From positions 1 to 24,680 of IMG/VR virus record IMGVR_UViG_3300012953_000213: a stretch of DNA of 24,680 nt; one strand, given 5' to 3'. Positions 3,233-24,680 of the stretch are shown piece by piece (position 1 is the stretch's first letter; every line of letters begins with the position of its first letter). A model generated the notes under the pieces. The model worked only from the letters and a program-made list of their open reading frames with translations, did no database searches and was not told where the DNA came from. A program made the position numbers and the translations under genes. This stretch comes from a virus. Taxonomy: Duplodnaviria; Caudoviricetes.

Positions 3233-5463
3233 TGTACAAGCAAACTTTATATAAAATTTATAATGATCATCTTTCTAACAAGAACATTATAAAACAAAAC
3301 AAAAATAAAAAATTTATTTATGGATATAATGAAGAACTTGATTGTGTTATAATAAGTAAAGACGGAACTATAGGTGAAATATATGAAATACAAGGTCTCA
3401 AGGTAGCAATACCTAAAACCCCTAAAAATATTATTGGGGAAGACCAAAAAAAATCAAATCAATATTTTAAAAAACGTTTAAGGCCAAATTCTTTAGATAA
3501 AATTAAAACAATATATGATTTTAAACATTATCCTGAAAAAGCAAAAGAAGATTATTTTGACTACATTAATGATGAGTTTAATTATCGTAGGGATGGGTAT
3601 TGGTTCATGTGCAACGGCTCCCCGTGTTACATTACAGGGTCGCACTACATTTACCTTAATTGGACGAAAATTGATATTGGTTCCCCGGACTTCAGACAAG
3701 CTAATAGAATCTTTTATTACTTCTGGGAAGCGTGTAAAGCAGACAAAAGATGTTATGGAATGTGCTACCTCAAAAATAGACGGTCTGGCTTTAGCTTCAT
3801 GGCATCATCGGAATGCGTTAACCAGGCTACAATTTCAAAAGATGCACGGTTTGGAATATTATCTAAAACAGGGGCTGATGCCAAAAAAATGTTTACCGAC
3901 AAAGTGGTACCTATCAGCATCAACTACCCATTTTTTTTCAAACCTATACAGGATGGAATGGAACGACCTAAGACAGAACTATCTTACAAGGTTCCATCGC
4001 GAAGACTTACAAGAAAGACTATTACGACTGCGGGGGATGAAGAAGGTATACCGACAGGATTGGACACCACAATCGATTGGAAGAATACAGGGGACAACTC
4101 CTATGATGGGGAGAAACTCCAATTACTCGTCCATGACGAATCCGGAAAATGGGAAAGACCGGACAACATCCTCAACAATTGGAGGGTCACAAAAACGTGT
4201 TTACGTCTCGGGTCGAAGATAGTAGGCAAATGTATGATGGGTTCAACTTCTAATGCATTAATTAAAGGAGGTGATAATTTTAAAAAATTATACTATAACT
4301 CAGATGTTACCAATAGAAATCGCAATGGCCAGACTACAAGTGGATTATATGCTTTGTTCATTCCTATGGAATGGGGATTCGAGGGGTTTATCGATAAGTA
4401 TGGGTACCCTGTCTTCGATAGCCCATCGGGAGAGATTGAAGGAATTGATGGTGAACCAATATCTACAGGAGTTATTGGACATTGGGAAAATGAAGTAGAA
4501 GGATTAAAAAAAGATAGTGATGCATTAAATGAATATTACAGACAATTTCCAAGATCTGAAAAACATGCTTTTAGAGATGAAACTTTAAATTCTTTATTCA
4601 ATTTAACTAAGATTTACGAACAAATTGATTTTAATGAAGAAATGACTATGAGCGGCTATGTGGTTCGTGGGAGTTTTTCATGGAAAAATGGAATTAAAGA
4701 TACTGAAGTATTATGGACACCAACAACTAATGGTAGATTTAGAGTTTCTTGGTTACCTCCAAATAATTTAAAAAACAATATTGTTTTAAAAAATAATTTA
4801 AAGTACCCTGGAAATGAAGGCTTAGGCGCTTTTGGATGTGATTCATATGATATATCAGGAACTGTGGGTGGAGGAGGTTCAAACGGCGCATTACACGGGC
4901 TAACTACTTTTTCAATGATTTCTGATGTGCCTAATACAAGATTTTTTTTAGAATATATTGCAAGGCCTCAAACAGCAGAAATATTTTTTGAGGATGTATT
5001 AATGGCATGTGCTTTTTATGGTATGCCTTTATTAGCAGAAAATAATAAACCTAGATTATTATATCATTTTAAAAGAAGAGGTTATAGAGGTTTTTCAATG
5101 AACCGTCCCGATAAATTAATAGGCAATTTATCAAAAACAGAAAAAGAATTAGGAGGAATACCTAATACTTCAGAAGATATTAAACAAGCCCACGCTGCTG
5201 CAATTGAATCTTATATAGAAGAATATGTTGGTAGAATGGAAGAAAACCACGGTGATATGTATTTTCAAAGAACATTAGAAGATTGGGCTAGATTTGATAT
5301 ATCCAGAAGAACATCCCATGATGCCTCTATTAGTAGTGGCTTAGCTATAATGGCATGCAGAAAACATATGTATCGTCCTAGACCTGAAAGAATAATTAAA
5401 AAACTTGATTTTAAATTTTCTAAATATACAAATAAAGGATCAAGAAGTGAGTTAATAAAATAA
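3232..5463 (+). CDS. terL: Terminase large subunit
   Basis: Walker A-like LKNRRSGFS, Walker B LLVHDESGKW and coupling motif MMGSTSN. C-terminal RNase H-like nuclease motifs FGCDSYD, LAENN and HDASISSGLA. Lies upstream of the portal. Confidence 0.92.
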   Translation: MYKQTLYKIYNDHLSNKNIIKQNKNKKFIYGYNEELDCVIISKDGTIGEIYEIQGLKVAIPKTPKNIIGEDQKKSNQYFKKRLRPNSLDKIKTIYDFKHYPEKAKEDYFDYINDEFNYRRDGYWFMCNGSPCYITGSHYIYLNWTKIDIGSPDFRQANRIFYYFWEACKADKRCYGMCYLKNRRSGFSFMASSECVNQATISKDARFGILSKTGADAKKMFTDKVVPISINYPFFFKPIQDGMERPKTELSYKVPSRRLTRKTITTAGDEEGIPTGLDTTIDWKNTGDNSYDGEKLQLLVHDESGKWERPDNILNNWRVTKTCLRLGSKIVGKCMMGSTSNALIKGGDNFKKLYYNSDVTNRNRNGQTTSGLYALFIPMEWGFEGFIDKYGYPVFDSPSGEIEGIDGEPISTGVIGHWENEVEGLKKDSDALNEYYRQFPRSEKHAFRDETLNSLFNLTKIYEQIDFNEEMTMSGYVVRGSFSWKNGIKDTEVLWTPTTNGRFRVSWLPPNNLKNNIVLKNNLKYPGNEGLGAFGCDSYDISGTVGGGGSNGALHGLTTFSMISDVPNTRFFLEYIARPQTAEIFFEDVLMACAFYGMPLLAENNKPRLLYHFKRRGYRGFSMNRPDKLIGNLSKTEKELGGIPNTSEDIKQAHAAAIESYIEEYVGRMEENHGDMYFQRTLEDWARFDISRRTSHDASISSGLAIMACRKHMYRPRPERIIKKLDFKFSKYTNKGSRSELIK
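3515..4222 (+). CDS. Candidate overprinted (+1 frame) lipoprotein nested in terL
   Basis: 235 open codons in a frame normally closed by TTA/ATA/GTA codons. N-terminus KKQKK-IILTTLMMSLIIVGMG-IGSC (Cys32 at 3608-3610) resembles a signal peptidase II signal. Coincides with a GC/rare-codon island. Confidence 0.55.
   Translation: MILNIILKKQKKIILTTLMMSLIIVGMGIGSCATAPRVTLQGRTTFTLIGRKLILVPRTSDKLIESFITSGKRVKQTKDVMECATSKIDGLALASWHHRNALTRLQFQKMHGLEYYLKQGLMPKKCLPTKWYLSASTTHFFSNLYRMEWNDLRQNYLTRFHREDLQERLLRLRGMKKVYRQDWTPQSIGRIQGTTPMMGRNSNYSSMTNPENGKDRTTSSTIGGSQKRVYVSGRR
4271..4498 (+). CDS. Second candidate overprinted (+1 frame) ORF in terL; true start may be ATG 4304 or 4325
   Basis: Same frame as 3515..4222. 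Overlaps a second GC-rich patch (4381-4440 = 29/60 GC vs 4261-4320 = 13/60, hand count). Confidence 0.35.
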   Translation: MIILKNYTITQMLPIEIAMARLQVDYMLCSFLWNGDSRGLSISMGTLSSIAHRERLKELMVNQYLQELLDIGKMK

Positions 5464-7940: not shown

Positions 7941-9251
7941 ATGGAAAACGAAGTACAAGAAAATGTAGAAGTTAAAGCAGTTGAAGAAACACCTTCTGAT
8001 GCTTTACCTCAAAATAAAGAAGCTGCTGTGCTTGAAAAAGCTGTAGAAGCAGGCGATGTAAAGCCAGAATATGGTTTACAAGATGATGGAGTCTATAAAA
8101 TAAATGTAGATAACCCACCACCGCCTAAAAAAGAAATTAAAGAAGAACCCAAAAAAGAAAAAGAAAATGCCGTTCAAAAATCAGAGCCAAAGGAAAGCGT
8201 GTTACGCGATGAACGACCCGAAGTGGGATTGCAAGAAGTGGGATCAGAAGTACGGGACGAATCCAACAAAGAAAATCTTACAGAGGAAAAACAAGCCCCT
8301 ATAGAGAAGGAAAAAACAGATTCACCATTAGAATTAATTATTGAAGAAGATAATAAAGCTGATGTCCCTAAAGAAATTAAAGAAGCACCTGCTGATTTAA
8401 AACCTAAGAAAGAATTACAGGAAGAAAAAATACCAGAACTTCCTGAAGGGGTAAATAAACTTATGAAATTTATAGAAGAAACAGGTGGAACTGTTGAAGA
8501 CTATGCTAAGTTAAATAAAGATTATTCTAAAATGGATAATTTAGTTTTACTTCGTGAATATTATGAGTTTACCAAACCTCATTTAGACAAAGAAGACATT
8601 AATTTTTTAATGGATAAAAACTTTGCCTATGATAAAGAATTAGACGATCCGTCTGATATAAAAGCTAAGCAATTAGCTTTTAAAGAAGAGTTATATAATG
8701 CTCAAAATGCATTAAATGGTGCTAAAGAAAAATATTATACTGATCTTAAGTTAAGAAAAAAGAATGATATTCCTAAAGAGTACCAAGAAGCATTAGTGTA
8801 TTATAATAAAACTCAGCAATTACTCAAAGAAGAAGCTCAAGTAGCGGATAATTTTTTAGAACAAACGAAAAATGTTTTTAACAATGATTTCAAAGGTTTT
8901 GATTTTAAGGTTGGAGAAAGCAAATATCGTGTTAAAATAGATAACACTAAAAAAATCCAAGAGTTTCAATCAGATATTAATAATTTCTTAAATCAATTTG
9001 TAGACGATAAAGGAGTTACTGATGCTAGAAAATACCATAAAGCTTTATACACCGCGCAAAATGCGGATAAAATAGCAAATCATTTTTACGAGCAAGGCCG
9101 TGCCGACGCTATAAAAGAATCTGCTAAAAAAGCTAAAAATATAAATATGGATCCAAGATCAGATGCCTCTTCTGTTGTTACAAAATCTGGTGATACGATA
9201 AGAGTTATATCTGGAGATTCTTCTGATAAATTGCGAATTAAATGGAAATAA
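7941..9251 (+). CDS. Putative capsid scaffolding protein
   Basis: Acidic, Glu/Lys/Pro-rich disordered N-half and helical C-half, located between portal and major capsid. Confidence 0.65.
   Translation: MENEVQENVEVKAVEETPSDALPQNKEAAVLEKAVEAGDVKPEYGLQDDGVYKINVDNPPPPKKEIKEEPKKEKENAVQKSEPKESVLRDERPEVGLQEVGSEVRDESNKENLTEEKQAPIEKEKTDSPLELIIEEDNKADVPKEIKEAPADLKPKKELQEEKIPELPEGVNKLMKFIEETGGTVEDYAKLNKDYSKMDNLVLLREYYEFTKPHLDKEDINFLMDKNFAYDKELDDPSDIKAKQLAFKEELYNAQNALNGAKEKYYTDLKLRKKNDIPKEYQEALVYYNKTQQLLKEEAQVADNFLEQTKNVFNNDFKGFDFKVGESKYRVKIDNTKKIQEFQSDINNFLNQFVDDKGVTDARKYHKALYTAQNADKIANHFYEQGRADAIKESAKKAKNINMDPRSDASSVVTKSGDTIRVISGDSSDKLRIKWK
8167..8304 (+). CDS. Overprinted (+1 frame) 45-aa basic protein nested in the scaffold gene; not in ORF track
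   Basis: MPFKNQSQRKACYAMNDPKWDCKKWDQKYGTNPTKKILQRKNKPL-TAG, with an A-rich leader. Coincides with rare codons in the scaffold frame. Resembles small phage proteins beginning MPFKS..Q. Confidence 0.7.
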   Translation: MPFKNQSQRKACYAMNDPKWDCKKWDQKYGTNPTKKILQRKNKPL

Positions 9252-9277
9252 TAATAATAACTTAAAATCAAAACATT

Positions 9278-10876
9278 ATGGCTTTTACTGGTGGCGTACC
9301 CGCCGCTTTACAACCGACCCAGACTAAAACACTTTATGCTGGGAACTATATTGACTTTACAGCCACAGGCTTTAGTCAATGGACACAACAATTTTTACCC
9401 GACGTATACGAAAAAGAAGTTGAAAGATATGGAAACAGATCAATCGGTTCTTTTCTTCGTATGGTATCTGCGGAGATGCCTTCTACATCAGATCAAATAA
9501 TTTGGACTGAGCAAGGAAGGTTACATACTAGATATGCAAACTGTTTACCTCAAGGAAATGCTGGTGCTATGCCTGCTGCAGGAGCTCAAGCTGCAATTGC
9601 TGCTGCTGGTGCTGCTGGTGGAGTACTTAACTTTAACGTACCTGCTGCAACACAACCTGCAAGCTTAGGTGTAAGTCCTACTACTCAAACATCACAAGTT
9701 AACTTCAGAGTTGGCCAAACTATTATGGTCCAAATTCAAACTAGTGCTACTTCAGCGGTTGGTGATCCAACTAAAGCTGTTATAAAAGGAGTTTGTACTG
9801 CTGTTGGAGTTGGTGGAGGTGCTACTGGTGGTGGACAACAATTTCAAATGCAAGCATATGCTGCTCATGGAGGAGTATTAGCTGCTGAAAGAGTTACTGC
9901 TATTGCATACGGTTCTGAATTTGCTAAAGGTACTGGAAACTTTACTGAAAGCTTAGATCCAGGATATGCTACTTTTACAACTTCTCCTTTAATTTTAAAA
10001 GAAAACTATCAAATCAATGGTTCTGACACTGCTCAGATTGGTTGGATTGAAGTTACTTCTGAAAATGGAGCTGGTGGTTATTTATGGTACATTAAATCAG
10101 AGCATGAAAATAGACTTCGATGGGAAGACTACATGGAAATGGCTATGATTGAAGGTGTTAAAAAAGTAGCCGGTGGTGCTGCTATTCCTCTTGGAACTTA
10201 TGGAGGAAGTTTAGCTGCTCAAAATGCTAGAGGTACTGAAGGTTTCTTTGAAGCTTTAGAATCTCGTGGAAATGTTTATTCAGGATTTGGTGGACAAGCT
10301 GCTGCTCAAGCTGGTGGTGGTGCGTTAACTGATTTTGATAACGTTCTTAAACAATTAGACAAGCAAGGATCAATTGAAGAAAATATGCTATTTTTAAATA
10401 GAGAACTTTCTTTAGAAATTGATGACATACTTGCAATGCAAAATGGTAATTATGCTGGTGCAGCTGGATATGCTCACGGTACATCTTATGGTGTATTCAA
10501 TAACAGCTCTGATATGGCTCTTAATTTAGGATTTACTGGTTACAGAAGAGGTTCTTATGACTTCTACAAAACTGACTGGAAATACTTAAATGATTGGTCA
10601 ACAAGAGGTGGTTTTGGAGGTGTCGAAGGTGTATTAGTACCTGCTGGAACTTCTACTGTTTATGACCAACAATTAGGTCAAAACATTAAAAGACCATTTT
10701 TACATATTCGCTATAGAGCTTCAGAAACAGAGAACAGAAAAAACAAATCTTGGATTACAGGATCTGTTGGAACTGGTGCTCCTACTTCTGATATTGATGA
10801 AATGAAAATCAATTACTTAAGTGAAAGATGTCTTGTTACACAAGCTGCTAATAATTTTGTATTATTTAAAGCTTAA
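9278..10876 (+). CDS. Major capsid protein
   Basis: 532 aa after the scaffold, with high-expression codon bias and followed by a strong terminator. Segments 'QQFLPDVYEKEVERYGNR', 'WTEQGRLH' and 'YLSERCL' fit crAss-like/flavobacterial podophage capsid proteins. Confidence 0.85.
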   Translation: MAFTGGVPAALQPTQTKTLYAGNYIDFTATGFSQWTQQFLPDVYEKEVERYGNRSIGSFLRMVSAEMPSTSDQIIWTEQGRLHTRYANCLPQGNAGAMPAAGAQAAIAAAGAAGGVLNFNVPAATQPASLGVSPTTQTSQVNFRVGQTIMVQIQTSATSAVGDPTKAVIKGVCTAVGVGGGATGGGQQFQMQAYAAHGGVLAAERVTAIAYGSEFAKGTGNFTESLDPGYATFTTSPLILKENYQINGSDTAQIGWIEVTSENGAGGYLWYIKSEHENRLRWEDYMEMAMIEGVKKVAGGAAIPLGTYGGSLAAQNARGTEGFFEALESRGNVYSGFGGQAAAQAGGGALTDFDNVLKQLDKQGSIEENMLFLNRELSLEIDDILAMQNGNYAGAAGYAHGTSYGVFNNSSDMALNLGFTGYRRGSYDFYKTDWKYLNDWSTRGGFGGVEGVLVPAGTSTVYDQQLGQNIKRPFLHIRYRASETENRKNKSWITGSVGTGAPTSDIDEMKINYLSERCLVTQAANNFVLFKA

Positions 10877-10890
10877 TTTTTTTTAACTAT

Positions 10891-10935
10891 AGAATGCGGG
10901 CTCTTCGGGGCCCGTTATTCTTATTTTATATTATT
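10891..10935 (+). terminator. Intrinsic terminator after the capsid gene
   Basis: Stem GCGGGCTC/GGGCCCGT with a C(UUCG)G tetraloop (10896-10915), extended by AGAAT/ATTCT and followed by a T-rich tract. Confidence 0.8.
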
Positions 10936-10940
10936 TTATT

Positions 10941-11720: not shown

Positions 11721-11727
11721 GTTACCG

Positions 11728-11756
11728 GATATGGAGTGAGAAATCAACTCCATATC
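11728..11756 (+). promoter_or_regulatory. Intergenic stem-loop without U-tract
   Basis: GATATGGAGT-GA-GAAA-TC-A-ACTCCATATC: a 10-bp perfect stem plus 2 bp, a one-base bulge and a GNRA loop. Confidence 0.6.
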
Positions 11757-11782
11757 AACAAATTAATAATAAAAAGTAATAA

Positions 11783-13458: not shown

Positions 13459-16400
13459 ATGCCAGAAATTAAAAGAACATTTAATGGCGGTAAAATGAAC
13501 CGTGATTTAGATGATAGAATACTACCTCCGGGTGACTACCGAGAAGCTTTTAATGTTAATATAGGACAATCAGAAGCTTCAGATGTAGGTTCAATTGAAA
13601 ATTTATTAGGTAATGAATTAGTAGCACAAAACCCTATTACAAATGGCGAATGTATTGGTTATGTTAGTGATAGCAAAACTGAAAAAATATATTTTTTTGT
13701 TACTAATAATTCAATATATAACGAAACAAATACAGGTCAGCATGGGCTTTTTGAATATGATCAAAAAACTAAACAAACTACAACATTAATAATTTCTACT
13801 CAATTAAATTTACATCAAGATTATCCTATTACAGGTATTAACATTGTGGATGATCTTTTATTTTGGACTGATAATAGAAATTATCCTAGAAAAATTAATG
13901 TGGTTACAGCTAGGAATAATACATCGTATTATACAGCAGCTCCAGATATTGATAATTTAATTTCTGTTTGTAAATTTGCTCCTTATGAATCTTTAACTAT
14001 AGTAGAAGCAACTAAAGAATCTACAATTACTTCTACATTTATGCAGGATAAATTAATTAGATTTTCATATAGATGGCAATTTGAAGATAGTGAATATAGT
14101 ACTTTAGCACCTTTTACTCCAGTATGTTTTTCAAGATTAAATGAAACAGATACTATTAATGCTTCTTTAGGAAATTTTGGAGAAATTGAAACTTTTACTA
14201 ATGCAATTAATCAATTAAAATTACAAATTCCAACACCAACTGGATATGGAATTACAAGTGTAGAATTAATTTATAAAGAATCCGGAACTGCAGGAGCTAT
14301 GTATGTGGTCAATGATAAAGAAGTAACTACAGAGCCGTTTGTTAACTTTACATATTCTTCAACAGACCCATTTAGAACTTTACCTCCTGATCAATTAACT
14401 AGAGTTTATGATGCTGTTCCTTTAAAAGCAAAAGCTCAAGACGTAGCAGGCGGAAGATTAGTCTATGGTAATTTTTTACAAAATTTTGATTTACCTCAAA
14501 TTTCTTTTTCGGTTGCAAGAACAGGAGAAACTTCAGCAAGAAACGGTGTTTTAGAAAATCAATCTGTTAAATCAAGAAGAACATATCAGGTAGGAATTGT
14601 ATTAGCTGATAAATTTGGAAGGCAATCGCCTGTAATTTTATCTAGTGCTGGTACAGATACAGTATTTATTGACCCAGGATATGGAAATGCAGCTGCAACT
14701 ACAGCATTTAATGCATTAAGAATAACGTTTACAGATACTACACAAATACCTGATTGGGCATACTCATATAGAGTGGTTGTAAAACAAAGAGAGCAAGAAT
14801 ATTATAATTGGATTTCTACAATCACAGGGGCTAACAACGTTGAACGTTTAGGAGATAGCATAAATAAAGTTCCTAGAGACCAAGATGCTGTTATACCTCC
14901 TAGTACTTCAGCTACAATTTCCCCATGTGATGTGTCTGTATACCCTAAATATTTAAATGGAGGTAATGTATATACTTCACCACAGGCTAATTTAACTAAA
15001 GTTCAATCAATTGCAAATCCTTCGGGAGATGCACTTGTAACAACATTAGATAATTCAGGTGCTTCAGTTACGAGTGGATTGTGTGTATTTGAAACTGAAC
15101 CTGTTAGTTCAGAATTAGATATATTTTATGAAACATCTACAGGCGGGTTAATTTCAGAAATACCAGCTACTGCAATTGATATTGATTTTTTTAATTGTAT
15201 ATTATTAACATTTGATCCAGGAGGAACTGGAAATGATCATATTGAAATAAATAGAATACGCGCTGGTTTTAATGAACCATTTTTTGACGTAGGAGTTAGA
15301 GCTTATGTTGTTCAAGAAAATTTTACTGAAGAAAGAAGAAATAATACATTAATACACTCTAGTGGTTTATTAAATTCTAGAACTGGAATTAATTATATAA
15401 ATCAATTTAATGAAGCTGAAGGTGGATTAACTACATCTCTAGATCCTCAAGACGGATCAATACAAAAATTATTTACAGATGATACTGCTATTTTAATTTT
15501 TCAAGAAGATAAAGTATCTAGATCACCTATTGACAAAGATTTTATTTATTCTGCAGAAGGAGGAGCGGTGCCTGTAACAAGTAATACTCAATTTTTAGGT
15601 ACTATAGCACCAGTGCCTGGACAATTTGGAATAGCTAAAAATCCAAAATCATTTGCAACGTACGGATTTTCTCAATATTTTACTGATACTAATAGAGGAG
15701 TTGTTTTAAGATTAGTAAGAGGACAGATACAAGAAATATCTAGCATTGGACTAGGTGATTTTTTTAGAGATGCATTGCAAGCTTCAACTGATGTGATTGG
15801 GTCTTTTGATGAATACAGTAGACTTTATGAATTAACAATGGTTGGTTTAGGTTTTGATGGTAATCAAGACACAAATGTAGGTACGGCTTCAAGTAATTAT
15901 TTAACTATTTGCTTTGATGATAGATCTAATGGGTGGACTTCATTTAGAGGATTTAAACAAGAAGGAGGTCTTTCATTAAATAATTCATATTATACATTTG
16001 GGTCAGGTAGTCTTTGGCAACATCACAGCCCTAATGTTACAAGAAATAATTTTTATAATACAGGAACACAAGAGTCATATGTTATACCAATTTTTAATGA
16101 TGCTCCTTCGTTAGTTAAACAATTTAATACTTTAGCGTATGAAGGTAATAGCGGGTGGAAATTATCTTATTTAGAAACAGATATTTCTAATATTGGAACA
16201 ATTCCAGTGCCAGCTACAACCTTTGATACTACTTTGCAATTAAGTGGATCGGCGCCCAACTCTATATTTAATGGCGCTAATACTAGTATTAATAAACAGG
16301 GAGAGCAAATTTTTTGGGCTATATTTGTTTCACCATTAAATTCACAGTTTAAATTTTCTAATACTTCTGATGTAACTTTAACTCAAGCAGCAGGTAGTAC

Positions 16401-17448
16401 ATTAACGGTTACTAATCCTTCAGCTATAACAAATGGGCAGTTAGTTTTTCAAGTGTCTCATGTTGTTGGTTCCAGTAACTCTATACAAACATTAAACATA
16501 GGAGGTACTGGTGCTGAATTAGCATTTACAGTAGCTTTATTAACAGTAAACACTATAGATACTATTTCAAATGCAGCAATAACACCTGCTTCTCAAGTAT
16601 TTAATAGTGCTGGTAATAATAATGTACAATTTACAGCATCTGCTTTTTCTAATTACTATGTTGATAATACTAACGTTGTAATTAATACTAGTGGAATGCC
16701 AGCTAGCACAAGTGTAGGCTCACCAACAGCAACTCAAAACGGAGATAATGTTAACTATTCAATTCCAATAGTAGTTCCAACATCAGCAACCGCTGGTATT
16801 ATAACAGTTACAGGTTCAGCAACTTTAAAACCAACATTAACATGGGCTGCAATTGCTGGGCCCGGTGTTTTAAATACTCCAGCGGGAACGGCAATAGGAA
16901 CAGCATATTATATTTCACCTTTTGATAATGCAAATTTGAGACTAGCTACAATTGTGTATACATGTGCAGCTACAGAGGTATTAACTACATCTTCTCAAAC
17001 TGTAGCTTATAATGTGGGTGGTGCAACTATAACTCCGGTATTAAGTAATTTAGATGGAATTTTAACTTTCACTATACAATTACCAAATTTAACCACAAAT
17101 ACAACTGCTACAGCAACACTGGGCACTTATACGCCGGCTACAGCAACGCTGGGCTCTATACCAGCCACACAAAATTTAGTTCAAGCTGGAACAGCAATTA
17201 CTATTGCTAATACATGGAACGTTCAAATTTCTGTAACTCCTTCTGATAACGGTGGTTTTGGTACAAGTTGGATTAAATTTAATGGAAACAATGGAACAGC
17301 TATTGTTGAACCTGGAGCTACTTTTACAATAAGTGCTGATGCTAACAATACAGGGTCAAGTAGAACTGTAGATGCTATAATTGCTTCTACTAATACAAGA
17401 ATAACCCCTGCATTATCAAATCAAACAATAACAATAACACAAGCTTAA
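13459..17448 (+). CDS. Tail muzzle/stabilisation protein (P22 gp10/T7 gp12-like position) with C-terminal Ig-like array ending in a BACON-like domain
   Basis: 1329 aa. N-terminal 'F.GGKMNRDLDDRILP', 'LFWTDNRNYPRKIN' and beta-propeller-like repeats. From about aa 915 it is Thr/Ala/Val-rich beta sequence ending W..W..ANNTGSSRT..TITITQA. Confidence 0.7.
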   Translation: MPEIKRTFNGGKMNRDLDDRILPPGDYREAFNVNIGQSEASDVGSIENLLGNELVAQNPITNGECIGYVSDSKTEKIYFFVTNNSIYNETNTGQHGLFEYDQKTKQTTTLIISTQLNLHQDYPITGINIVDDLLFWTDNRNYPRKINVVTARNNTSYYTAAPDIDNLISVCKFAPYESLTIVEATKESTITSTFMQDKLIRFSYRWQFEDSEYSTLAPFTPVCFSRLNETDTINASLGNFGEIETFTNAINQLKLQIPTPTGYGITSVELIYKESGTAGAMYVVNDKEVTTEPFVNFTYSSTDPFRTLPPDQLTRVYDAVPLKAKAQDVAGGRLVYGNFLQNFDLPQISFSVARTGETSARNGVLENQSVKSRRTYQVGIVLADKFGRQSPVILSSAGTDTVFIDPGYGNAAATTAFNALRITFTDTTQIPDWAYSYRVVVKQREQEYYNWISTITGANNVERLGDSINKVPRDQDAVIPPSTSATISPCDVSVYPKYLNGGNVYTSPQANLTKVQSIANPSGDALVTTLDNSGASVTSGLCVFETEPVSSELDIFYETSTGGLISEIPATAIDIDFFNCILLTFDPGGTGNDHIEINRIRAGFNEPFFDVGVRAYVVQENFTEERRNNTLIHSSGLLNSRTGINYINQFNEAEGGLTTSLDPQDGSIQKLFTDDTAILIFQEDKVSRSPIDKDFIYSAEGGAVPVTSNTQFLGTIAPVPGQFGIAKNPKSFATYGFSQYFTDTNRGVVLRLVRGQIQEISSIGLGDFFRDALQASTDVIGSFDEYSRLYELTMVGLGFDGNQDTNVGTASSNYLTICFDDRSNGWTSFRGFKQEGGLSLNNSYYTFGSGSLWQHHSPNVTRNNFYNTGTQESYVIPIFNDAPSLVKQFNTLAYEGNSGWKLSYLETDISNIGTIPVPATTFDTTLQLSGSAPNSIFNGANTSINKQGEQIFWAIFVSPLNSQFKFSNTSDVTLTQAAGSTLTVTNPSAITNGQLVFQVSHVVGSSNSIQTLNIGGTGAELAFTVALLTVNTIDTISNAAITPASQVFNSAGNNNVQFTASAFSNYYVDNTNVVINTSGMPASTSVGSPTATQNGDNVNYSIPIVVPTSATAGIITVTGSATLKPTLTWAAIAGPGVLNTPAGTAIGTAYYISPFDNANLRLATIVYTCAATEVLTTSSQTVAYNVGGATITPVLSNLDGILTFTIQLPNLTTNTTATATLGTYTPATATLGSIPATQNLVQAGTAITIANTWNVQISVTPSDNGGFGTSWIKFNGNNGTAIVEPGATFTISADANNTGSSRTVDAIIASTNTRITPALSNQTITITQA
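17107..17154 (+). repeat. 18-bp direct repeat (17/18 identical, 30-nt period)
   Basis: GCTACAGCAACACTGGGC (17107-17124) and GCTACAGCAACGCTGGGC (17137-17154), both encoding ATATLG. Confidence 0.8.
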
Positions 17449-18152: not shown

Positions 18153-19202
18153 ATGGGAGGAAAGAAAAGAAGAAATAGACAAGCAGCCGCAATTGCTATA
18201 GAAAATCAAGGTGATATTTTAGCTAAACAAACTGCAGCACAAGATCAATATGATTCTGATTTAGCTGCACTAAAAGGAATGCAATCTACAGATTTTTACA
18301 AAGATTTAGGCTATCAGGGCTATGCAGATAAAGTACAAGGTGTTCAAGCAACTGAAATGGGTCAATTAGCTACTGGTCAAGTTGCTAATTTAGGACCAGC
18401 ACGAGGTTATGCAGATCAATTAACACAAGCACAAGGTTTTACTACTGATGTGGCTGGATTAGCTAGAGGTCAAGATACAGGTCTTAGTAATGTATTTAAT
18501 AACCTACAGGTTTCAACTGCCGGCGCTGAATTTGCCGCAAACGAAGCAGATCAAGCATTAGCTGCTTCACAAAATTTAATTGCCCAAACTGGTGGTGGCG
18601 GTGCTACAGCTTTAGCTGCTGCCGCTTCAAAATCAAAAGCAGGAATTCAAGCAGATATAGACAGGCAAGTAATAGAAAATGAAAAGTTAAGAGCTCAAGG
18701 CGAACAAGGATTACAAAGAGATTTATTAGCTCAAGGTAATTTAGCATCTCAATTTGATTTAGGACAACAACAATTTAACCAAAGTGCTAGACAGCAAGCT
18801 AATATGTTTAATGCGCAAGCGGCTAATCAGGCTGCTAGATTTGGTGCTGAATCAGCAAATCAATTTGCCTTAGCTGATTTTGGAGCACAGAATAATATGT
18901 CACAATTTAATGCTTCTGCATCTAATGCACAATCATTAGCTGATTTTCAAAACAGAGCTAATGTAAATGCTCAAAATGCTACAGCAACAAATGCAGCTTT
19001 ATCACAAGATGCTAAAAGTACAGCAGCTATGGATTTAGCTAAAGCAGCAGGTGCAACTGATGCTGAAAGAGGGGCTTATAATATACAAGCTAATTTACTT
19101 GATATTTCTACAAATGCTTTAAGTGAGCAAGATGCTGTAGCGGCAGAAAATCAAGCTGTTATAGATTTAGGTAAGATGTCTAAAAGAAATATTTTCGGTT
19201 AA
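18153..19202 (+). CDS. Putative internal virion/ejection protein
   Basis: Ala/Gln/Asn-rich helical protein with recurring QFN/QF..A periodicity and a 'GGGGATALAAAA' segment. Follows the tail genes. Confidence 0.55.
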   Translation: MGGKKRRNRQAAAIAIENQGDILAKQTAAQDQYDSDLAALKGMQSTDFYKDLGYQGYADKVQGVQATEMGQLATGQVANLGPARGYADQLTQAQGFTTDVAGLARGQDTGLSNVFNNLQVSTAGAEFAANEADQALAASQNLIAQTGGGGATALAAAASKSKAGIQADIDRQVIENEKLRAQGEQGLQRDLLAQGNLASQFDLGQQQFNQSARQQANMFNAQAANQAARFGAESANQFALADFGAQNNMSQFNASASNAQSLADFQNRANVNAQNATATNAALSQDAKSTAAMDLAKAAGATDAERGAYNIQANLLDISTNALSEQDAVAAENQAVIDLGKMSKRNIFG

Positions 19203-19219
19203 AATAATAATAATAACAC

Positions 19220-20389
19220 ATGAAAGATTATAATCCTGGATTAGCGGCTCAAAAAAATAATCCTGAACAAAAAATTATCAAAGATGCTAGAAATATTGAA
19301 TTTGATAGACAATTCAAAAAAACCTCTGAACAAAGATTAAATCAAGAATACCCAAATCCAACAGGTATTTTTGATGCTGAAGTACAAGGTGTTGCTAGAG
19401 CTATTGTTGAAAAAGCAAGTGATTTAACTAATAAAAAGAAAAAAGGCGATATTACAAATGCCAAATATGCTGCTCAAATGGCTAATATTCAACAAATGGT
19501 AGGTAATTTAAAACAATTTAAAGCCAACATCAATACTAATATGCGAGCTTATAATGAAGCTTTAAAAAACGGAACATTATCATATGGTATGGATCAAAAT
19601 GATGAAGCTGTGCTTATGGCTTTAAATAAAGGTGAAGTTAATTTGGATTTAGACGATAATAATCGTGTTATGTTAACAGGTAAAGCAAATAATCCTTTAA
19701 CAGGTGAATTTGATGTTAATATATATGACGCGATTAATATTCCTGGACCAGTTACTAAAATTGCACCAATTAATTTATTACTTGATCCTGTAGCTAAATC
19801 ATTAGGATTAGATGCTAATGGCCAACCTCAAATAAAAATTGATGAAACTGGAAGAAAAATATTAGACACAGGCGATATTAGTGAACATAAACAAGATATA
19901 ATAGAATTTTCGCAAGATGCTTTAGAAGAAGTTGGGCCTAGGGGTATCAGATCTTATTTAGGTGATCATATGAATTTATCAAATCAAGAAATTAAAAATT
20001 TGATGGAACATCTTAATTTTAATGATGGTGACCATGAATGGGAAAATGCTGGTCATGCTAAAGTATTCCAAAGCTTAAATGATTATATAAGTAATAAATA
20101 CCAAAGACAAAGAAGACCTCATCCAGACACGTTAGCAGCTCAAGTTTCAAATCAAGCTTCACAAATAGCAGCAAACAAACAAGTACAATTAGCTTCAGAT
20201 GATGTTACACAATCTACTCCCGGGGGAGGTACGTTACAAACAGATGCAGTAGCTATGAATGATCCTTCTAAAGGAATTGAAGATATAGGCATAATGCAAG
20301 CTTTTGTACCAGAGCCAGAAATATCACCTTTAAAGAAAGTTAAAAAAAATAATAAAGCACTTGAATTAATTAAAAAATACTCTGCATGA
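19220..20389 (+). CDS. Putative internal virion/ejection protein
   Basis: 389-aa helical protein between the small and giant ejection-type ORFs. Positional call. Confidence 0.5.
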   Translation: MKDYNPGLAAQKNNPEQKIIKDARNIEFDRQFKKTSEQRLNQEYPNPTGIFDAEVQGVARAIVEKASDLTNKKKKGDITNAKYAAQMANIQQMVGNLKQFKANINTNMRAYNEALKNGTLSYGMDQNDEAVLMALNKGEVNLDLDDNNRVMLTGKANNPLTGEFDVNIYDAINIPGPVTKIAPINLLLDPVAKSLGLDANGQPQIKIDETGRKILDTGDISEHKQDIIEFSQDALEEVGPRGIRSYLGDHMNLSNQEIKNLMEHLNFNDGDHEWENAGHAKVFQSLNDYISNKYQRQRRPHPDTLAAQVSNQASQIAANKQVQLASDDVTQSTPGGGTLQTDAVAMNDPSKGIEDIGIMQAFVPEPEISPLKKVKKNNKALELIKKYSA

Positions 20390-23300
20390 CTTTAGAAACA
20401 ATTGTAAATAATATGATAGCGGCTAACGAGCCAGAGTCAAATATTGCAATGGTTATAAAAGCTTTTAAAAAAGTAAAAGAATTAAAAAATACAAAAAGCC
20501 CATTAAAGCAAATTGATCCAGATCCTGAAGAGGAATTTAAAAAATGGATTCAAAGTTCTCCATCTGTTCCTGACCAATTTGAACAAGATACAAAAAGAGA
20601 AGAATTAAGATTACCTCCTGATAATAGTGTTGAAGCAATACGTCGAAGAAAAAAAGATCCTGTTGCTCCTCAAATAGATCTTGAAGAAGTTACTGTAACA
20701 GCCGGTGAAAGAGAACCGGTAACAGGCGTTTCAAGACAAAGAATGATGGGGCAAGCTCCGCCTTCTCAACAACGAGATCGTGAACAAGTTGAGAAAGAAA
20801 GATTAATTGCTGAAAAAACACTTCAAGACGAAGATTTCTCTGGAATTGAACAGCAATTTTTAGACGGTATTGGTCCTCGTAATTTAACAAGAAAAGAGCT
20901 TGGAACACAATTAATTAATTCTATATATAAAAACCCTATATCAAGAACAATTAATAAACTTTTATTTAATGCTTTAGAGGGTAATATTGATGAAGAAGCA
21001 TTACAAAAAGAAGAAGATCTTAAAAATAAATTACCTGATATTGCAAAAGGTATTGTTGATAATAATACATTTCTTAATAATTTTCCAAATTTAGTATTTG
21101 AAAATAACAAAGATTTAATTCAAAATACAGAAGAAAGAATATATGGAAATTTAATTGATTTTAAGCAAGAAACATATGATTCAATAGCTAATGGATCTGA
21201 TATACAGCAATTAAAACAAAAACTTATTAAACAAAGTGGGATTCCTTATGTTATACAAAATGGCACTTTATATTTAGCACCCAATGTAGATACAAAATCA
21301 CCACAATTTTTAAAAAGACAAAATGACATTGCAAAAAAACTTCAAATTGAAATTTCAAAAAAAGTAAATAATTCTTTAAAAAATAATAATGATTATATTA
21401 ATGCAGTAGCCTCTGCTAATAAAGAAAACTCTGCATTTAGGCAAAGTTTAATTTCTGATGCTGCATCTAAAAGCGCTACATATAATAATATAATAAATAA
21501 AATAAATGACGAGGCACAAAGCGCAGTACAAAAAGAAATTGATTTTAGATTAGATAAAAAATATTCAGGACTTGGCACTTTTGGAGAAGGATTTTATGAA
21601 ACAGCTTTAGCTACCATACCAAAAGCTTATCAAGATTTTAGGGTATTAGCGGCTGGTAGAGGAATTAAAAAAATAAATGAAGAAATAAAAGAACTTAAAG
21701 AAGGTAAATTTTCTACTACCCAAGATGGTAGAATTCAATATGTAAATCCCGGTGGAGGTACACGGATATATAATAATGTTGATGAGGCAATTGCTCAAAA
21801 AGAAAATTTAATAAAGGAGCGCTTAGAAGACACCTCAGAAGCTCTTATTAGAAGTGAACAATACCAAAAAGATATTGCTAATTTTGATCAACCCGAGTTA
21901 TTTGATGAGGATGGATTAACATTGGATGATTTTGGTAAAATTTTAGGTACTCAATCAGTACAAATGCTAGGAGCTATTGCTACATTTGGTGGAAGCACTT
22001 TAATACAAGAAGCGGGCGGAGCATTAGACGAAATTTTATCTCAAAAAGCAGCAGAAAATTTAAACATTAGCATACAAGATTTTAATGCTCTTAGTGGTGA
22101 AGAAAAAAGAGAAGCTTTAATTGAAGAATTAAATAAAGGTGAAGAGTATTTAGATACAGCGTTAAATGTTGGTATAGCAAATGCAGGTTTAGATTTAGTT
22201 GGTAATTTTGTTGCATTAGGAGCCGGTACAAAAGCTATGCCTAAAGGTTTTTTAAAAGCAATATTAAGAGGCCGATATGATACTGCTAGCTCAAAATACT
22301 TAAAGCCTGCAGTTGCAAATTTAGGAAAAGCAACTATTTTTGAATCAGGAACAGAAGTTGGTCAAGAAGCTGTTTCTTTAGCTGGAGTAGCTTCAGCAAC
22401 AGGAGAAGATGTAATAAATAAATTAACGTCCCCTGATGCTGTAAAACAATATTTAGAAGCTGGTGGCCAGGCTGCTATTGCTACAGGCCCTTTTGTTGGA
22501 GCAGGTAAAATAACAACTAGCACATTAAATCTTTTTAGAACAAATCCAGAAGGATTAGTTATACGACAACAAGCCGCTGAAGAAGAATATAATAAAGGGG
22601 TACAAGATGTTAATAATTTAAATTTATCGCCTGAACAAAAACAAATAGAATTAGATAAATTAAATAATAATTTAGAAAAAGAATTTGATAATTTAACCGC
22701 CGCTAATGCTTATATAAAAAATACAAAATTTAAAGACTTAAAAGGAGAAGCAGCAGCCGAAGTATATGATGCTATAGCGCAAGCTGTGCCTGTTCAAAAA
22801 GAATTAATTCAAATTGAAAATCAAATAAATCAAATAAATCAAGCAGAAGGAACTGTTAACCCTGATTTATTAGCTAAACAAAAAGAATTATTAGCAGAAC
22901 AAAAAAGATTAAGTGATATAACCGTTTTAGCAAGAGTAGGACAAGTAACAGGAGAAACAAATAAAGCCCTTATAAAAAAAGTTAATGAGTCAAATGAAGG
23001 TAATTTAAAAGATAAATCTATAAAAGAATACAATACTCGTGAGCAAGCTAGAAAAGATATTATAAAAAATCATGGAGAAGGCAAGCTTTCAGACGGTAAT
23101 GTTATAGGTTTACTAAAAGGAGATCAAAAAACTGGCCTATTTAACAATGCAATAATAATTGGTAATAACGCTTATGTTGTTAAAGAAAATGTTAAAGAAA
23201 ATATTTTAGGGAGCAATAGAGATCTTGCTGCAGGTAACGCGGTAGCTCATGAAGTTGGACATTTTTTAATGGATGGCATTTCATATACTGAACTAGATAA

Positions 23301-24680
23301 ATTAAGAAAATCCACAATAGCTGAGCTTGAAAATAGTACTGATCCTAAAATGAAAAAAGCTTATGAGCAAGTAAAAGATAGGCTTAAGGGATATGCTGGA
23401 ACTGGAAAAGGAAAGGGGGGCAGGACTGCCTTAGCACAGGAATTTTTTACTGCTCTTTCAGACTCAATGGCTGCGATAGAGATTGGTAATATTGCATTAG
23501 AAGATGTTAGCATATTAAGAAAAATAGGTAATTTATTTAGTGGTGCTATTAATACGGTGGCTCCTGATGAGTTAAACATTGGAGATCTTAATAACGGTGC
23601 TAATACTTTAGAGTTTATTAAAAGATATAATAATTTTGATAAAGACACTAAAATTGTTCCTGCTAGCGAAGTTACAGAAATTATTAAAACAGAAAAACCT
23701 ACTCTTGCGTCTAAACCTTTAACTATAGAAGAAATAAACACTCGAGTTAAAGATGTTAAAGCAGGAGAAATGCCTCAGGATCTTGCTACACAAATAGCTT
23801 ATGCTTATGAACCATTAGCACAAAAAATAGCTTCAGAAATATTTAGAAATTATCAAGGTGAAGTTGGTTATACACAAGGAGATTTTGCAATGGACATTGC
23901 TTTTGGTGATCCCAAAGCTATTGGAGGTAAAAATAGTTTGGTAGAAATTGCTAAAGACTATGATCCTAATAATAAAGAAGGAAAATCTTTAGGGGGTTGG
24001 TTAGGCGACATAGGACGACAAAGAGCTAAAAGAATTGCAGAAAAAAGAATTGGTTCTCAAAAAACTACAGGAGCTACTAAAATAGACGCACCTGAAAGCG
24101 TAGAAATAGAAGCTGAAACAACACCTGAAGTAACAATAGAAAAACCAAAAACTACAGTATTAGCTCTTCCTAAATCCATGCAAGAAGCGGGTAAAGAAGC
24201 CGCGCAATTAGCAGCAGCTAAAGCAAAAAGCGATATTCTTAAAAATCCTAAAGCTACTTTAAAACAAAAAACCACTATCCGTGATAAAGCTCTTACTCAA
24301 GTAATGAACAGAGCGGCTGGTAAAGAAATAAAAAGTTTAATTAGAAACTTAGGTGTAGACGCTGCAAATGATTATATATCTAATAATTACAAAGCTGTAG
24401 CGGAAGCTTTTGTTAAAGACAAAAATATTAATAAAATACGTGATGCTAAAACTAAAAAGCTATTACAAGGTTGGAAAGATGGCAATATTACTAAAGATTC
24501 TGTAACAGGATATTTTAATGATCCTAATGTAAAAAGCAATACTAGATCAGATAGAAGAAATAGGGCTTTAACAGATGTTATATCTTCTATAATTATGAAA
24601 GAGTCTGTAAAAGATTTAAAAGCTTCTGACCCTAAACTTGCTGATGAATTTCAAGATGAGACTGGTATTGTATTAGCAAG
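20386..24680 (+). CDS. Giant multidomain internal virion/ejection protein (partial, >1431 aa, runs off the window); not in ORF track
   Basis: ATGA overlap with the previous stop. Frame 1 was translated by hand with no stop to the window end (MTLETIVNNMIAANEPESNIAMVIK...). Contains LEEVTVTA, Gly/Ala hydrophobic helices, HEVGH and a sigma region-2-like segment. Confidence 0.88.
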   Translation, partial: MTLETIVNNMIAANEPESNIAMVIKAFKKVKELKNTKSPLKQIDPDPEEEFKKWIQSSPSVPDQFEQDTKREELRLPPDNSVEAIRRRKKDPVAPQIDLEEVTVTAGEREPVTGVSRQRMMGQAPPSQQRDREQVEKERLIAEKTLQDEDFSGIEQQFLDGIGPRNLTRKELGTQLINSIYKNPISRTINKLLFNALEGNIDEEALQKEEDLKNKLPDIAKGIVDNNTFLNNFPNLVFENNKDLIQNTEERIYGNLIDFKQETYDSIANGSDIQQLKQKLIKQSGIPYVIQNGTLYLAPNVDTKSPQFLKRQNDIAKKLQIEISKKVNNSLKNNNDYINAVASANKENSAFRQSLISDAASKSATYNNIINKINDEAQSAVQKEIDFRLDKKYSGLGTFGEGFYETALATIPKAYQDFRVLAAGRGIKKINEEIKELKEGKFSTTQDGRIQYVNPGGGTRIYNNVDEAIAQKENLIKERLEDTSEALIRSEQYQKDIANFDQPELFDEDGLTLDDFGKILGTQSVQMLGAIATFGGSTLIQEAGGALDEILSQKAAENLNISIQDFNALSGEEKREALIEELNKGEEYLDTALNVGIANAGLDLVGNFVALGAGTKAMPKGFLKAILRGRYDTASSKYLKPAVANLGKATIFESGTEVGQEAVSLAGVASATGEDVINKLTSPDAVKQYLEAGGQAAIATGPFVGAGKITTSTLNLFRTNPEGLVIRQQAAEEEYNKGVQDVNNLNLSPEQKQIELDKLNNNLEKEFDNLTAANAYIKNTKFKDLKGEAAAEVYDAIAQAVPVQKELIQIENQINQINQAEGTVNPDLLAKQKELLAEQKRLSDITVLARVGQVTGETNKALIKKVNESNEGNLKDKSIKEYNTREQARKDIIKNHGEGKLSDGNVIGLLKGDQKTGLFNNAIIIGNNAYVVKENVKENILGSNRDLAAGNAVAHEVGHFLMDGISYTELDKLRKSTIAELENSTDPKMKKAYEQVKDRLKGYAGTGKGKGGRTALAQEFFTALSDSMAAIEIGNIALEDVSILRKIGNLFSGAINTVAPDELNIGDLNNGANTLEFIKRYNNFDKDTKIVPASEVTEIIKTEKPTLASKPLTIEEINTRVKDVKAGEMPQDLATQIAYAYEPLAQKIASEIFRNYQGEVGYTQGDFAMDIAFGDPKAIGGKNSLVEIAKDYDPNNKEGKSLGGWLGDIGRQRAKRIAEKRIGSQKTTGATKIDAPESVEIEAETTPEVTIEKPKTTVLALPKSMQEAGKEAAQLAAAKAKSDILKNPKATLKQKTTIRDKALTQVMNRAAGKEIKSLIRNLGVDAANDYISNNYKAVAEAFVKDKNINKIRDAKTKKLLQGWKDGNITKDSVTGYFNDPNVKSNTRSDRRNRALTDVISSIIMKESVKDLKASDPKLADEFQDETGIVLA

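Follow-up and report, generated by a model that had tools for sequence, protein, structure and literature searches.

The giant putative ejection protein encoded at the end of the virion block of an uncultured marine podophage contains a segment that, judged from its predicted model, is very probably a real, far-diverged sigma-2 domain. We see an even chance that an early sigma injected with the DNA and cut from this giant, followed by a stand-alone phage sigma, steers host RNA polymerase (RNAP) to the phage early genes.

The window, a stretch of 24,680 nt from the IMG/VR record IMGVR_UViG_3300012953_000213, covers the virion block of this phage with its terminase, portal, capsid, and crassvirus-type muzzle genes. 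The source record is 38% complete and its early arm lies outside the window, so that the promoters of the phage itself had to be deduced from relatives. The muzzle gene (13459..17448, plus strand; crAss_MUZ, E 5e-10, crAss_MUZ_C, and phrog_14478) is followed by genes of 79, 149, 349, and 389 aa and then by an ORF that starts at 20386 and runs off the end. The 349 and 389 aa genes (18153..20389, plus strand) are placed in the ejection/cargo slot by position only and found no match in Pfam or PHROG searches. The last ORF (20386..24680, plus strand) encodes the first 1431 of ~2493 aa of the giant, and its location, last in the virion block and behind the muzzle and the two mid-sized genes, agrees with the earlier note on this DNA. 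In the relatives L001 and L002, the giant gene is followed by a ribonucleotide reductase gene on the opposite strand. Based on gene position only, the giant is likely packaged in the virion. G+C-rich hairpins at 10877-10940, after the capsid gene, and at 11721-11782, after the next gene, are conserved in position among relatives and are likely terminators or processing sites.

A Shine-Dalgarno motif was found in 0 of the 19 window genes. Its absence is described as typical of Bacteroidota, whose main sigma recognizes TTTG/TAHHTTTG (PMC6847099). The terminase is 62% identical to that of an uncultured spring phage and 45% identical to those of Flavobacterium elemo phages, and 86 of the 87 terminase-matching records are named phages of Flavobacterium, Cellulophaga, Tenacibaculum, or Maribacter. 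Because the window genes lack Shine-Dalgarno motifs and the terminase is nearest to those of Flavobacterium/Cellulophaga phages, the host would be a member of the Bacteroidota. Three metagenome-assembled genome (MAG) contigs carrying the giant were dropped as host evidence since they are short and probably misbinned. A MAG labelled Woesearchaeota (L088/G003) has a contig with the giant plus two sigma genes, which we take to be of the T4-like gp55 type; this suggests that phage contigs were binned into the MAG.

The half of the giant missing from the window was supplied by the database protein P0005 (2493 aa), which shows 3 differences over the first 1431 residues. When the 152-aa segment was used as a phmmer query against 1.84 billion representatives, 24 matches were obtained, 21 of which carry the same segment, nearly all within proteins of 1400-2800 aa; the other three are unrelated or a 60-aa fragment. 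Scanning viral contigs with the whole giant confirmed 221 relatives, 80 of which were kept. Among 142 long ORFs, with muzzles, other large proteins, and fragments in the set, an iterated HMM detected the sigma-like segment in 101; it missed ~13 full-length family members, three of which show the sigma-like string by eye. The giant was found in none of 50,697 cultured phage records. The cultured relatives by terminase, Flavobacterium phage elemoA and MW202828, encode giants of 3694 and 3859 aa, respectively, which gave no BLAST match to P0005 and at best E 0.014 with the sigma-2 HMM; these phages carry another giant and stand outside the system. The middle region of the giant is highly variable among relatives, unlike the neighbouring sigma-like domain. 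In many giants, this middle module carries a WEHA(V/M)P motif (aa ~1600 of P0005, beyond the window), presumably reminiscent of HNH-type nucleases, and other giants have a zeta-toxin/AAA_33 kinase (P0020) or a second zincin there.

The sigma-like peptide quoted in the earlier note was found in the giant, with I1137 at 23794-23796, W1205 at 23998-24000, and KIDAP from 24079. The domain starts ~27 residues before the region assigned to it there (aa ~1137-1220), at residue 1110. The AlphaFold2 model, structure ranking, and family profile together delimit a helical domain resembling sigma70 regions 1.2 and 2 at aa 1110-1222 (23713..24051, plus strand). AlphaFold2, run on aa 1110-1425 with a 35-sequence alignment, predicted two helical domains (pLDDT mostly 65-89) with a disordered linker between them, and the pLDDT of the sigma-like domain is 73-88 over 110 residues. 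When this predicted model was compared with 48,161 PDB representatives, ranks 1-13 were all structures of sigma regions 1.2/2, in support of the proposed sigma-2 fold. The best match was RpoS (5h6x; Z 9.1, rmsd 2.8 Å, 93 of 96 residues aligned), although a Z of ~9 in helical bundles can reflect a common arrangement; the nearest structures also include SigB (8x6g), SigE (8b3z), sigma32 (8hkc), and FliA (9wsf). Foldseek against PDB and BFVD gave nothing at E < 0.001, with sigma factors among the weak rows.

Profile searches pointed in the same direction as the structure ranking at low significance. A 56-sequence family profile searched against 177,635 PDB sequences ranked FliA first (E 0.0012, two entries) and SigE next (E 0.019). 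The hhalign comparison with 29 sigma factors was weak, with a probability of 51-58% and E of about 1e-4 as against 0.18 for the reversed profile. Among 40 windows along the giant, only that of sigma-2 fell below E 0.02 (2.5e-4; next best 0.028). The Pfam check that the earlier note proposed failed: Sigma70_r2 did not match the window segment, and over 56 cut segments it produced five sub-threshold matches (E 0.011-0.094) and none at the curated cut-off. Likewise, searches of Pfam, PHROG, and PDB (phmmer) with the segment or whole giants retrieved no sigma. In the Atlas, 30 feature matches to ~145-aa viral proteins serve as a lead only; four of them fall in a set in which 54% of one cluster's members carry Sigma70_r2.

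The sigma-2 domain and the segment have in common the pattern Y-x-P-L-V..I..., D/E-L, Y/F-D-P, an aromatic residue, and R. Across 71 non-redundant rows, Y/F1192 is kept in 100%, P1194 in 80%, an aromatic residue at 1205 in 100%, R1213 in 99%, and D1234 in 86%. Thus, of the YDP/W positions expected to be conserved, Y/F-x-P held while W1205 did not, the aromatic residue being Y in 58%, F in 25%, and W in 17% of the rows. W1205 aligns with the Y of FxxYAxWW, outside the WW pair of region 2.3, which is absent, with D1208 and I1209 at those columns; the position equivalent to Q437 is variable. The domain has near-invariant positions and is retained in most family members across deep clades. It resembles the sigma70 domain sigma-2 (regions 1.2 and 2.1-2.4; PF04542) in predicted helix arrangement over ~93 residues. 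In contrast to sigma70, it is embedded in a protein of 2493 aa, has 12-16% identity and no WW pair, is accompanied by no recognisable region 3 or 4, and stays below the Pfam threshold. The domain is sigma-like by predicted function, yet outside the sigma70 family by the Pfam cut-off and with no region 4 found.

The sigma-like domain is followed by a flexible linker containing IDAP (24061..24144, plus strand), with pLDDT <50 at model residues 117-144 and the D1234 conserved in 86% of rows. By its motif, this linker presumably resembles sigma region 3.2 and is a candidate sigma-finger-like segment. The downstream helical domain (24148..24645, plus strand; pLDDT 65-89) bears a T-K-E-x-x-YF ... 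TRSDR(K/R) motif, is conserved within the window's clade, and presents the conserved TRSDR(K/R) on a helix-loop-helix, which makes it a candidate reader of an upstream element. Region 4 was not matched in this domain by fold in the two-domain model, by sigma profile, or in the Atlas; nor did the domain have a clear fold match or a usable Atlas match of any other kind.

Upstream of the sigma-like domain, the giant carries an HEVGH zincin motif of the MPTase type (23248..23262, plus strand) with a conserved Glu, E1019, downstream. H955, E956, H959, and E1019 are invariant in 12 aligned giants, and in 61 of 73 relatives an HExxH lies no more than 320 aa ahead of the sigma-like domain. An LASKP motif, a candidate self-cleavage site, marks the border just before the sigma-like domain (23704..23718, plus strand). 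The motif recurs in P0005, where LAS(K/R)P at aa 1107 precedes sigma-2, at 1430 follows the helical domain, and at 1697 precedes the conserved C-terminal part; only the start of the second LASKP (24673..24680, plus strand; aa 1430 onward in P0005) is included at the window end. AS[KR] precedes sigma-2 in 15/73 proteins (background 3%; 36/73 vs 14% with a relaxed pattern), follows the helical domain in 18/33 (background 2%), and precedes the conserved C-terminal part in 22/68 (background 2-3%). In the nine proteins in which both borders were scored, the piece between ASK borders measures 311-348 aa. The ASK motifs flanking this domain pair of ~320 aa, together with the upstream zincin, suggest release by self-cleavage, and the sigma-2 plus helical piece is likely cut out by the giant's own zincin. 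Autoproteolytic release of domains after injection has been proposed for polyvalent proteins (PMC5512222). P0005 has a second HExxH at 2431 with a weak match to the phrog_87 metalloprotease; this metalloprotease-like domain at the extreme C-terminus (aa 2380-2493) resembles ~100-aa stand-alone genes, as seen in the late arm of G006 (L135:10806-11102).

The RNAP catalytic motif, which the earlier note did not see in the truncated gene, is also missing from the complete one, as DxDGD is absent from the full-length giant and the motif of two-barrel RNAPs, D-x-D-G/I-D, occurs in 0 of 101 giants. P0005 contains just two DxDxD strings, DDDED and DYDDD, both close to the C-terminus. Without the catalytic motif, the giant is no virion polymerase of the crAss type and looks like an alternative to a virion RNAP. 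In a close relative, the C-terminal 700 aa were modelled as all-helical with a mean pLDDT of 59 and no significant match; generic helical hairpins only were listed, with no ejection-protein or polymerase folds, which counts against neither. An R-x3-K near aa 2157, which we took to resemble motif B of single-subunit RNAPs, was rejected, being displaced by one residue and situated in a model that is helical throughout. Neither a Pfam match to RNAP nor any other RNA or DNA polymerase was found among the 55 ORFs of a relative whose record is complete with terminal repeats.

The relatives have in addition a stand-alone sigma70-type gene of ~250 aa, which is located between small early genes and replication genes (examples are L121-L125 and L321-L349, e.g. 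L136:5200-5940). It was detected in 29 of 50 records and in all 15 of those at least 90% complete. The product contains regions 2 and 4 and lacks the WW pair; its best match in cultured phage records is about 27% identical, and no close homolog was found there.

The early arms of relatives contain repeated promoter-like sites on one strand, mostly 20-40 nt before start codons. Class B, TT(A/G)CAAA-n4-ACGW-N9-GATAATA, is present in 28/50 records, 17 of which have 4-11 copies on one strand as compared with at most 3 per record in the reversed control. Class A, ACGTTAC-N17-GATAAT, is present in 7/50 records (one possibly by chance), all with the window-type helical domain, and the closest relative with a partial early arm has one degenerate class-A site. 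The 17-bp spacer of class A is of textbook length and would fit a region-4 sigma such as the stand-alone one; region 4 was not found in the giant, which counts against the giant as the reader. When 16 early arms were delimited by the phage motif itself, 95 phage-motif sites were counted vs 0.44 expected, while the host element TAHHTTTG remained at chance level (27 vs 27.7 expected on the early strand, and 60 on the opposite strand). One early-motif copy lies directly before the stand-alone sigma gene of G005. Among the cultured relatives, the examined 49.7 kb of elemoA contain 0 copies of motifs A and B, and a single B match turned up in MW202828.

Of 67 distinct loci, 46 have a second class of site, YGTRAT-N1-2-ATA, ahead of the ejection operon, and the class also stands before the first replication gene in 13 of 29; antisense copies numbered 0 at both places. 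The stand-alone sigma would thereby have its own target. Of 14 window-type loci, 0 carry this class ahead of the ejection operon, and the intergenic DNA of the window has no copy. Judging from their sequence and placement, the early and second-class motifs probably represent promoters.

Which factor would read the early sites was approached through sequence divergence and tree comparison. In 16 class-B phages sharing GATAAT, the embedded domains are 10-87% identical (median 26), and region 2 of the stand-alone sigma is 54-100% identical (median 70). A reader of a fixed −10 box is expected to be more conserved, and the divergence of the embedded domain thus counts against the giant as the early reader. 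Classes A and B track the stand-alone sigma tree as well as the tree of the giant's C-terminal part, and not the sigma-2 tree, in a four-tree test of 9 records (11 GGATAAT records were left out; two trees were repeated with 20 records). Since the classes follow both trees, their co-variation fails to point to the giant in particular. The −13 base, just before GATAAT, places G051 with the giant's sigma-2 tree, against the stand-alone sigma tree; this favours the giant but is one event, seen on quickly built trees whose branches are long.

These observations can be arranged into the following scheme. The giant would be packaged in the virion and injected with the DNA, and the ~320-residue piece would be cut out at the ASK motifs by the zincin domain. 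The released piece would bind the host RNAP core and bring it to early GATAAT promoters, including the site before the stand-alone sigma gene; its sigma-2 domain would grip the β′ clamp helices and open the −10 box, and the IDAP linker and helical domain would stand in for sigma regions 3.2 and 4. The early arm would make the stand-alone sigma, which would turn to the second motif class for replication and virion genes. The sequence, conservation, gene order, motifs, and stand-alone sigma gene are seen directly and the fold is predicted; from these we infer packaging, cleavage, core binding, and the assignment of factors to promoters. The earlier note had left two options for an injected sigma-like module, and redirection of host RNAP gains partial support from the promoter-like motifs and the borders of the ~320-aa module; blocking of host RNAP may still apply. 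A wider formulation is more tentative, with slightly less than an even chance: in widespread marine and freshwater Bacteroidota podophages, a self-processing polyprotein would free a new kind of sigma at entry, composed of sigma-2 and a non-sigma DNA-reading domain, which would serve early promoters without host sigma or phage polymerase and leave the later genes to the stand-alone sigma.

It is rather unlikely that the injected sigma-2 only grips core RNAP, either as a decoy displacing the host sigma or as a tether at the entry channel that pulls the DNA in, with the early sites read by the stand-alone sigma in a self-amplifying manner or by a host ECF sigma. Such a role would fit the conservation of structural positions (Y/F-x-P, the aromatic residue, and R1213) alongside variable −10-reading positions, the agreement of classes A and B with the stand-alone sigma tree, and the failure to find region 4 in the giant by fold or profile. 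However, the early arms have no more host-type promoters to start the cascade than expected by chance, the class-B clade has a second motif class for its stand-alone sigma, and a sigma-sized two-domain piece between boundary motifs exceeds the needs of a decoy. The domain might also have no contact with RNAP, being a captured relic or serving a structural or other binding role in an ejection protein. Its extreme divergence, with even sub-threshold Sigma70_r2 in only 5/56 segments, and the tendency of polyvalent phage proteins to gather many domains (PMC5512222) speak for such a role, but the retention of the domain by most of the family, even between deep clades, and its near-invariant positions next to a highly variable middle region make it improbable.

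The assignment of the two factors could also be reversed, with a newly made sigma-2-only module acting like gp55 at middle/late sites, which have the single box YGTAATAATA, and the multi-box early sites left to the stand-alone sigma. The presence of region 4 in the stand-alone sigma, the single box of the second motif class, and the appearance among the fold matches of 7d7d_F (rank 24, Z 6.2, 93 aligned), which we take to be a chain of a gp55-containing complex, are in line with this arrangement. We nevertheless regard it as quite improbable. The giant's own operon lies behind a YGTAATAATA-type site in 46/67 loci, the first production of the stand-alone sigma is left without explanation, and the first second-class site comes directly after the stand-alone sigma gene, the order expected if the stand-alone sigma reads those sites.

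The preferred scheme, an injected sigma followed by a stand-alone one, can be compared with known phage systems. T4 gp55 is reduced to about one sigma domain. As proposed here, gp55 and the SPO1 middle/late sigmas (PMC13401047) re-aim the host core RNAP at phage promoters; these are small, stand-alone proteins made after early transcription by the host sigma, whereas here the domain sits in a cargo-gene slot and an extra stand-alone sigma exists. In PhiCrAss001, whose cargo proteins and virion RNAP fall in gp45-gp50, the particle contains two cargo proteins of middle size and three large ones that are associated with RNAP, and delivery of early transcription machinery with the DNA has been proposed (PMC10172136). 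The gene order is alike, with a muzzle gene, two mid-sized genes, and then very large genes. Unlike PhiCrAss001, our phage has one giant without a polymerase motif and with an all-helical model of the C-terminal part, and would borrow the host enzyme. Polyvalent MPTase proteins, described by Iyer et al., 2017 (PMC5512222), are also large multi-domain phage proteins with HExxH...E as in the giant. T4 Alt is a packaged modifier of host RNAP (PMC5512222) and modifies the enzyme chemically, whereas the piece of the giant would replace the specificity subunit.

The word sigma is absent from the main text of PMC5512222, and no report of a virion-borne sigma domain was found in the literature, of which mainly titles and abstracts were covered, incompletely. 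A survey of single-domain phage sigmas used Pfam trusted cut-offs (bioRxiv 10.64898/2026.10.08.757525), below which the giant's sigma-2 falls. Early transcription has been described to proceed by host holoenzyme, by injected phage polymerase (N4 and crassviruses), or by injected modifiers (T4 Alt); an injected sigma, if true, would be a further and much cheaper route. It would explain GATAAT-type phage promoters in hosts whose main sigma reads TAHHTTTG, and a working sigma/promoter pair would be of use for orthogonal transcription in Bacteroidota. The idea can be tested directly on three defined parts, namely the ~320-aa piece, the stand-alone sigma, and the two promoter classes.

Further features were noted in the genomes of relatives. 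The complete record G006 (G004-G008 correspond to L126-L145) encodes a primase-helicase, ERF, thymidylate synthase, ribonucleotide reductase, and GroEL/GroES, and no recognised DNA polymerase. G008 (L142-L145), 99% complete, lacks both early motifs and appears to contain two virion modules with hardly any early arm; it is probably a chimeric assembly. A further repeat, TGCTATACAC, occurs in the G006 early arm (L136:17-44, 1114-1127, 2501-2528, and 4117-4144) and also immediately precedes class-A sites in G004 and in G010. At the junction of the early and late arms, 40-90 nt before the first late gene, many relatives have an inverted-repeat-like element, GTGACA/GCGACA ... TGTC(G/A)CA (e.g. L350, L361, and L138 near 9200-9370), which is possibly an origin or packaging site.
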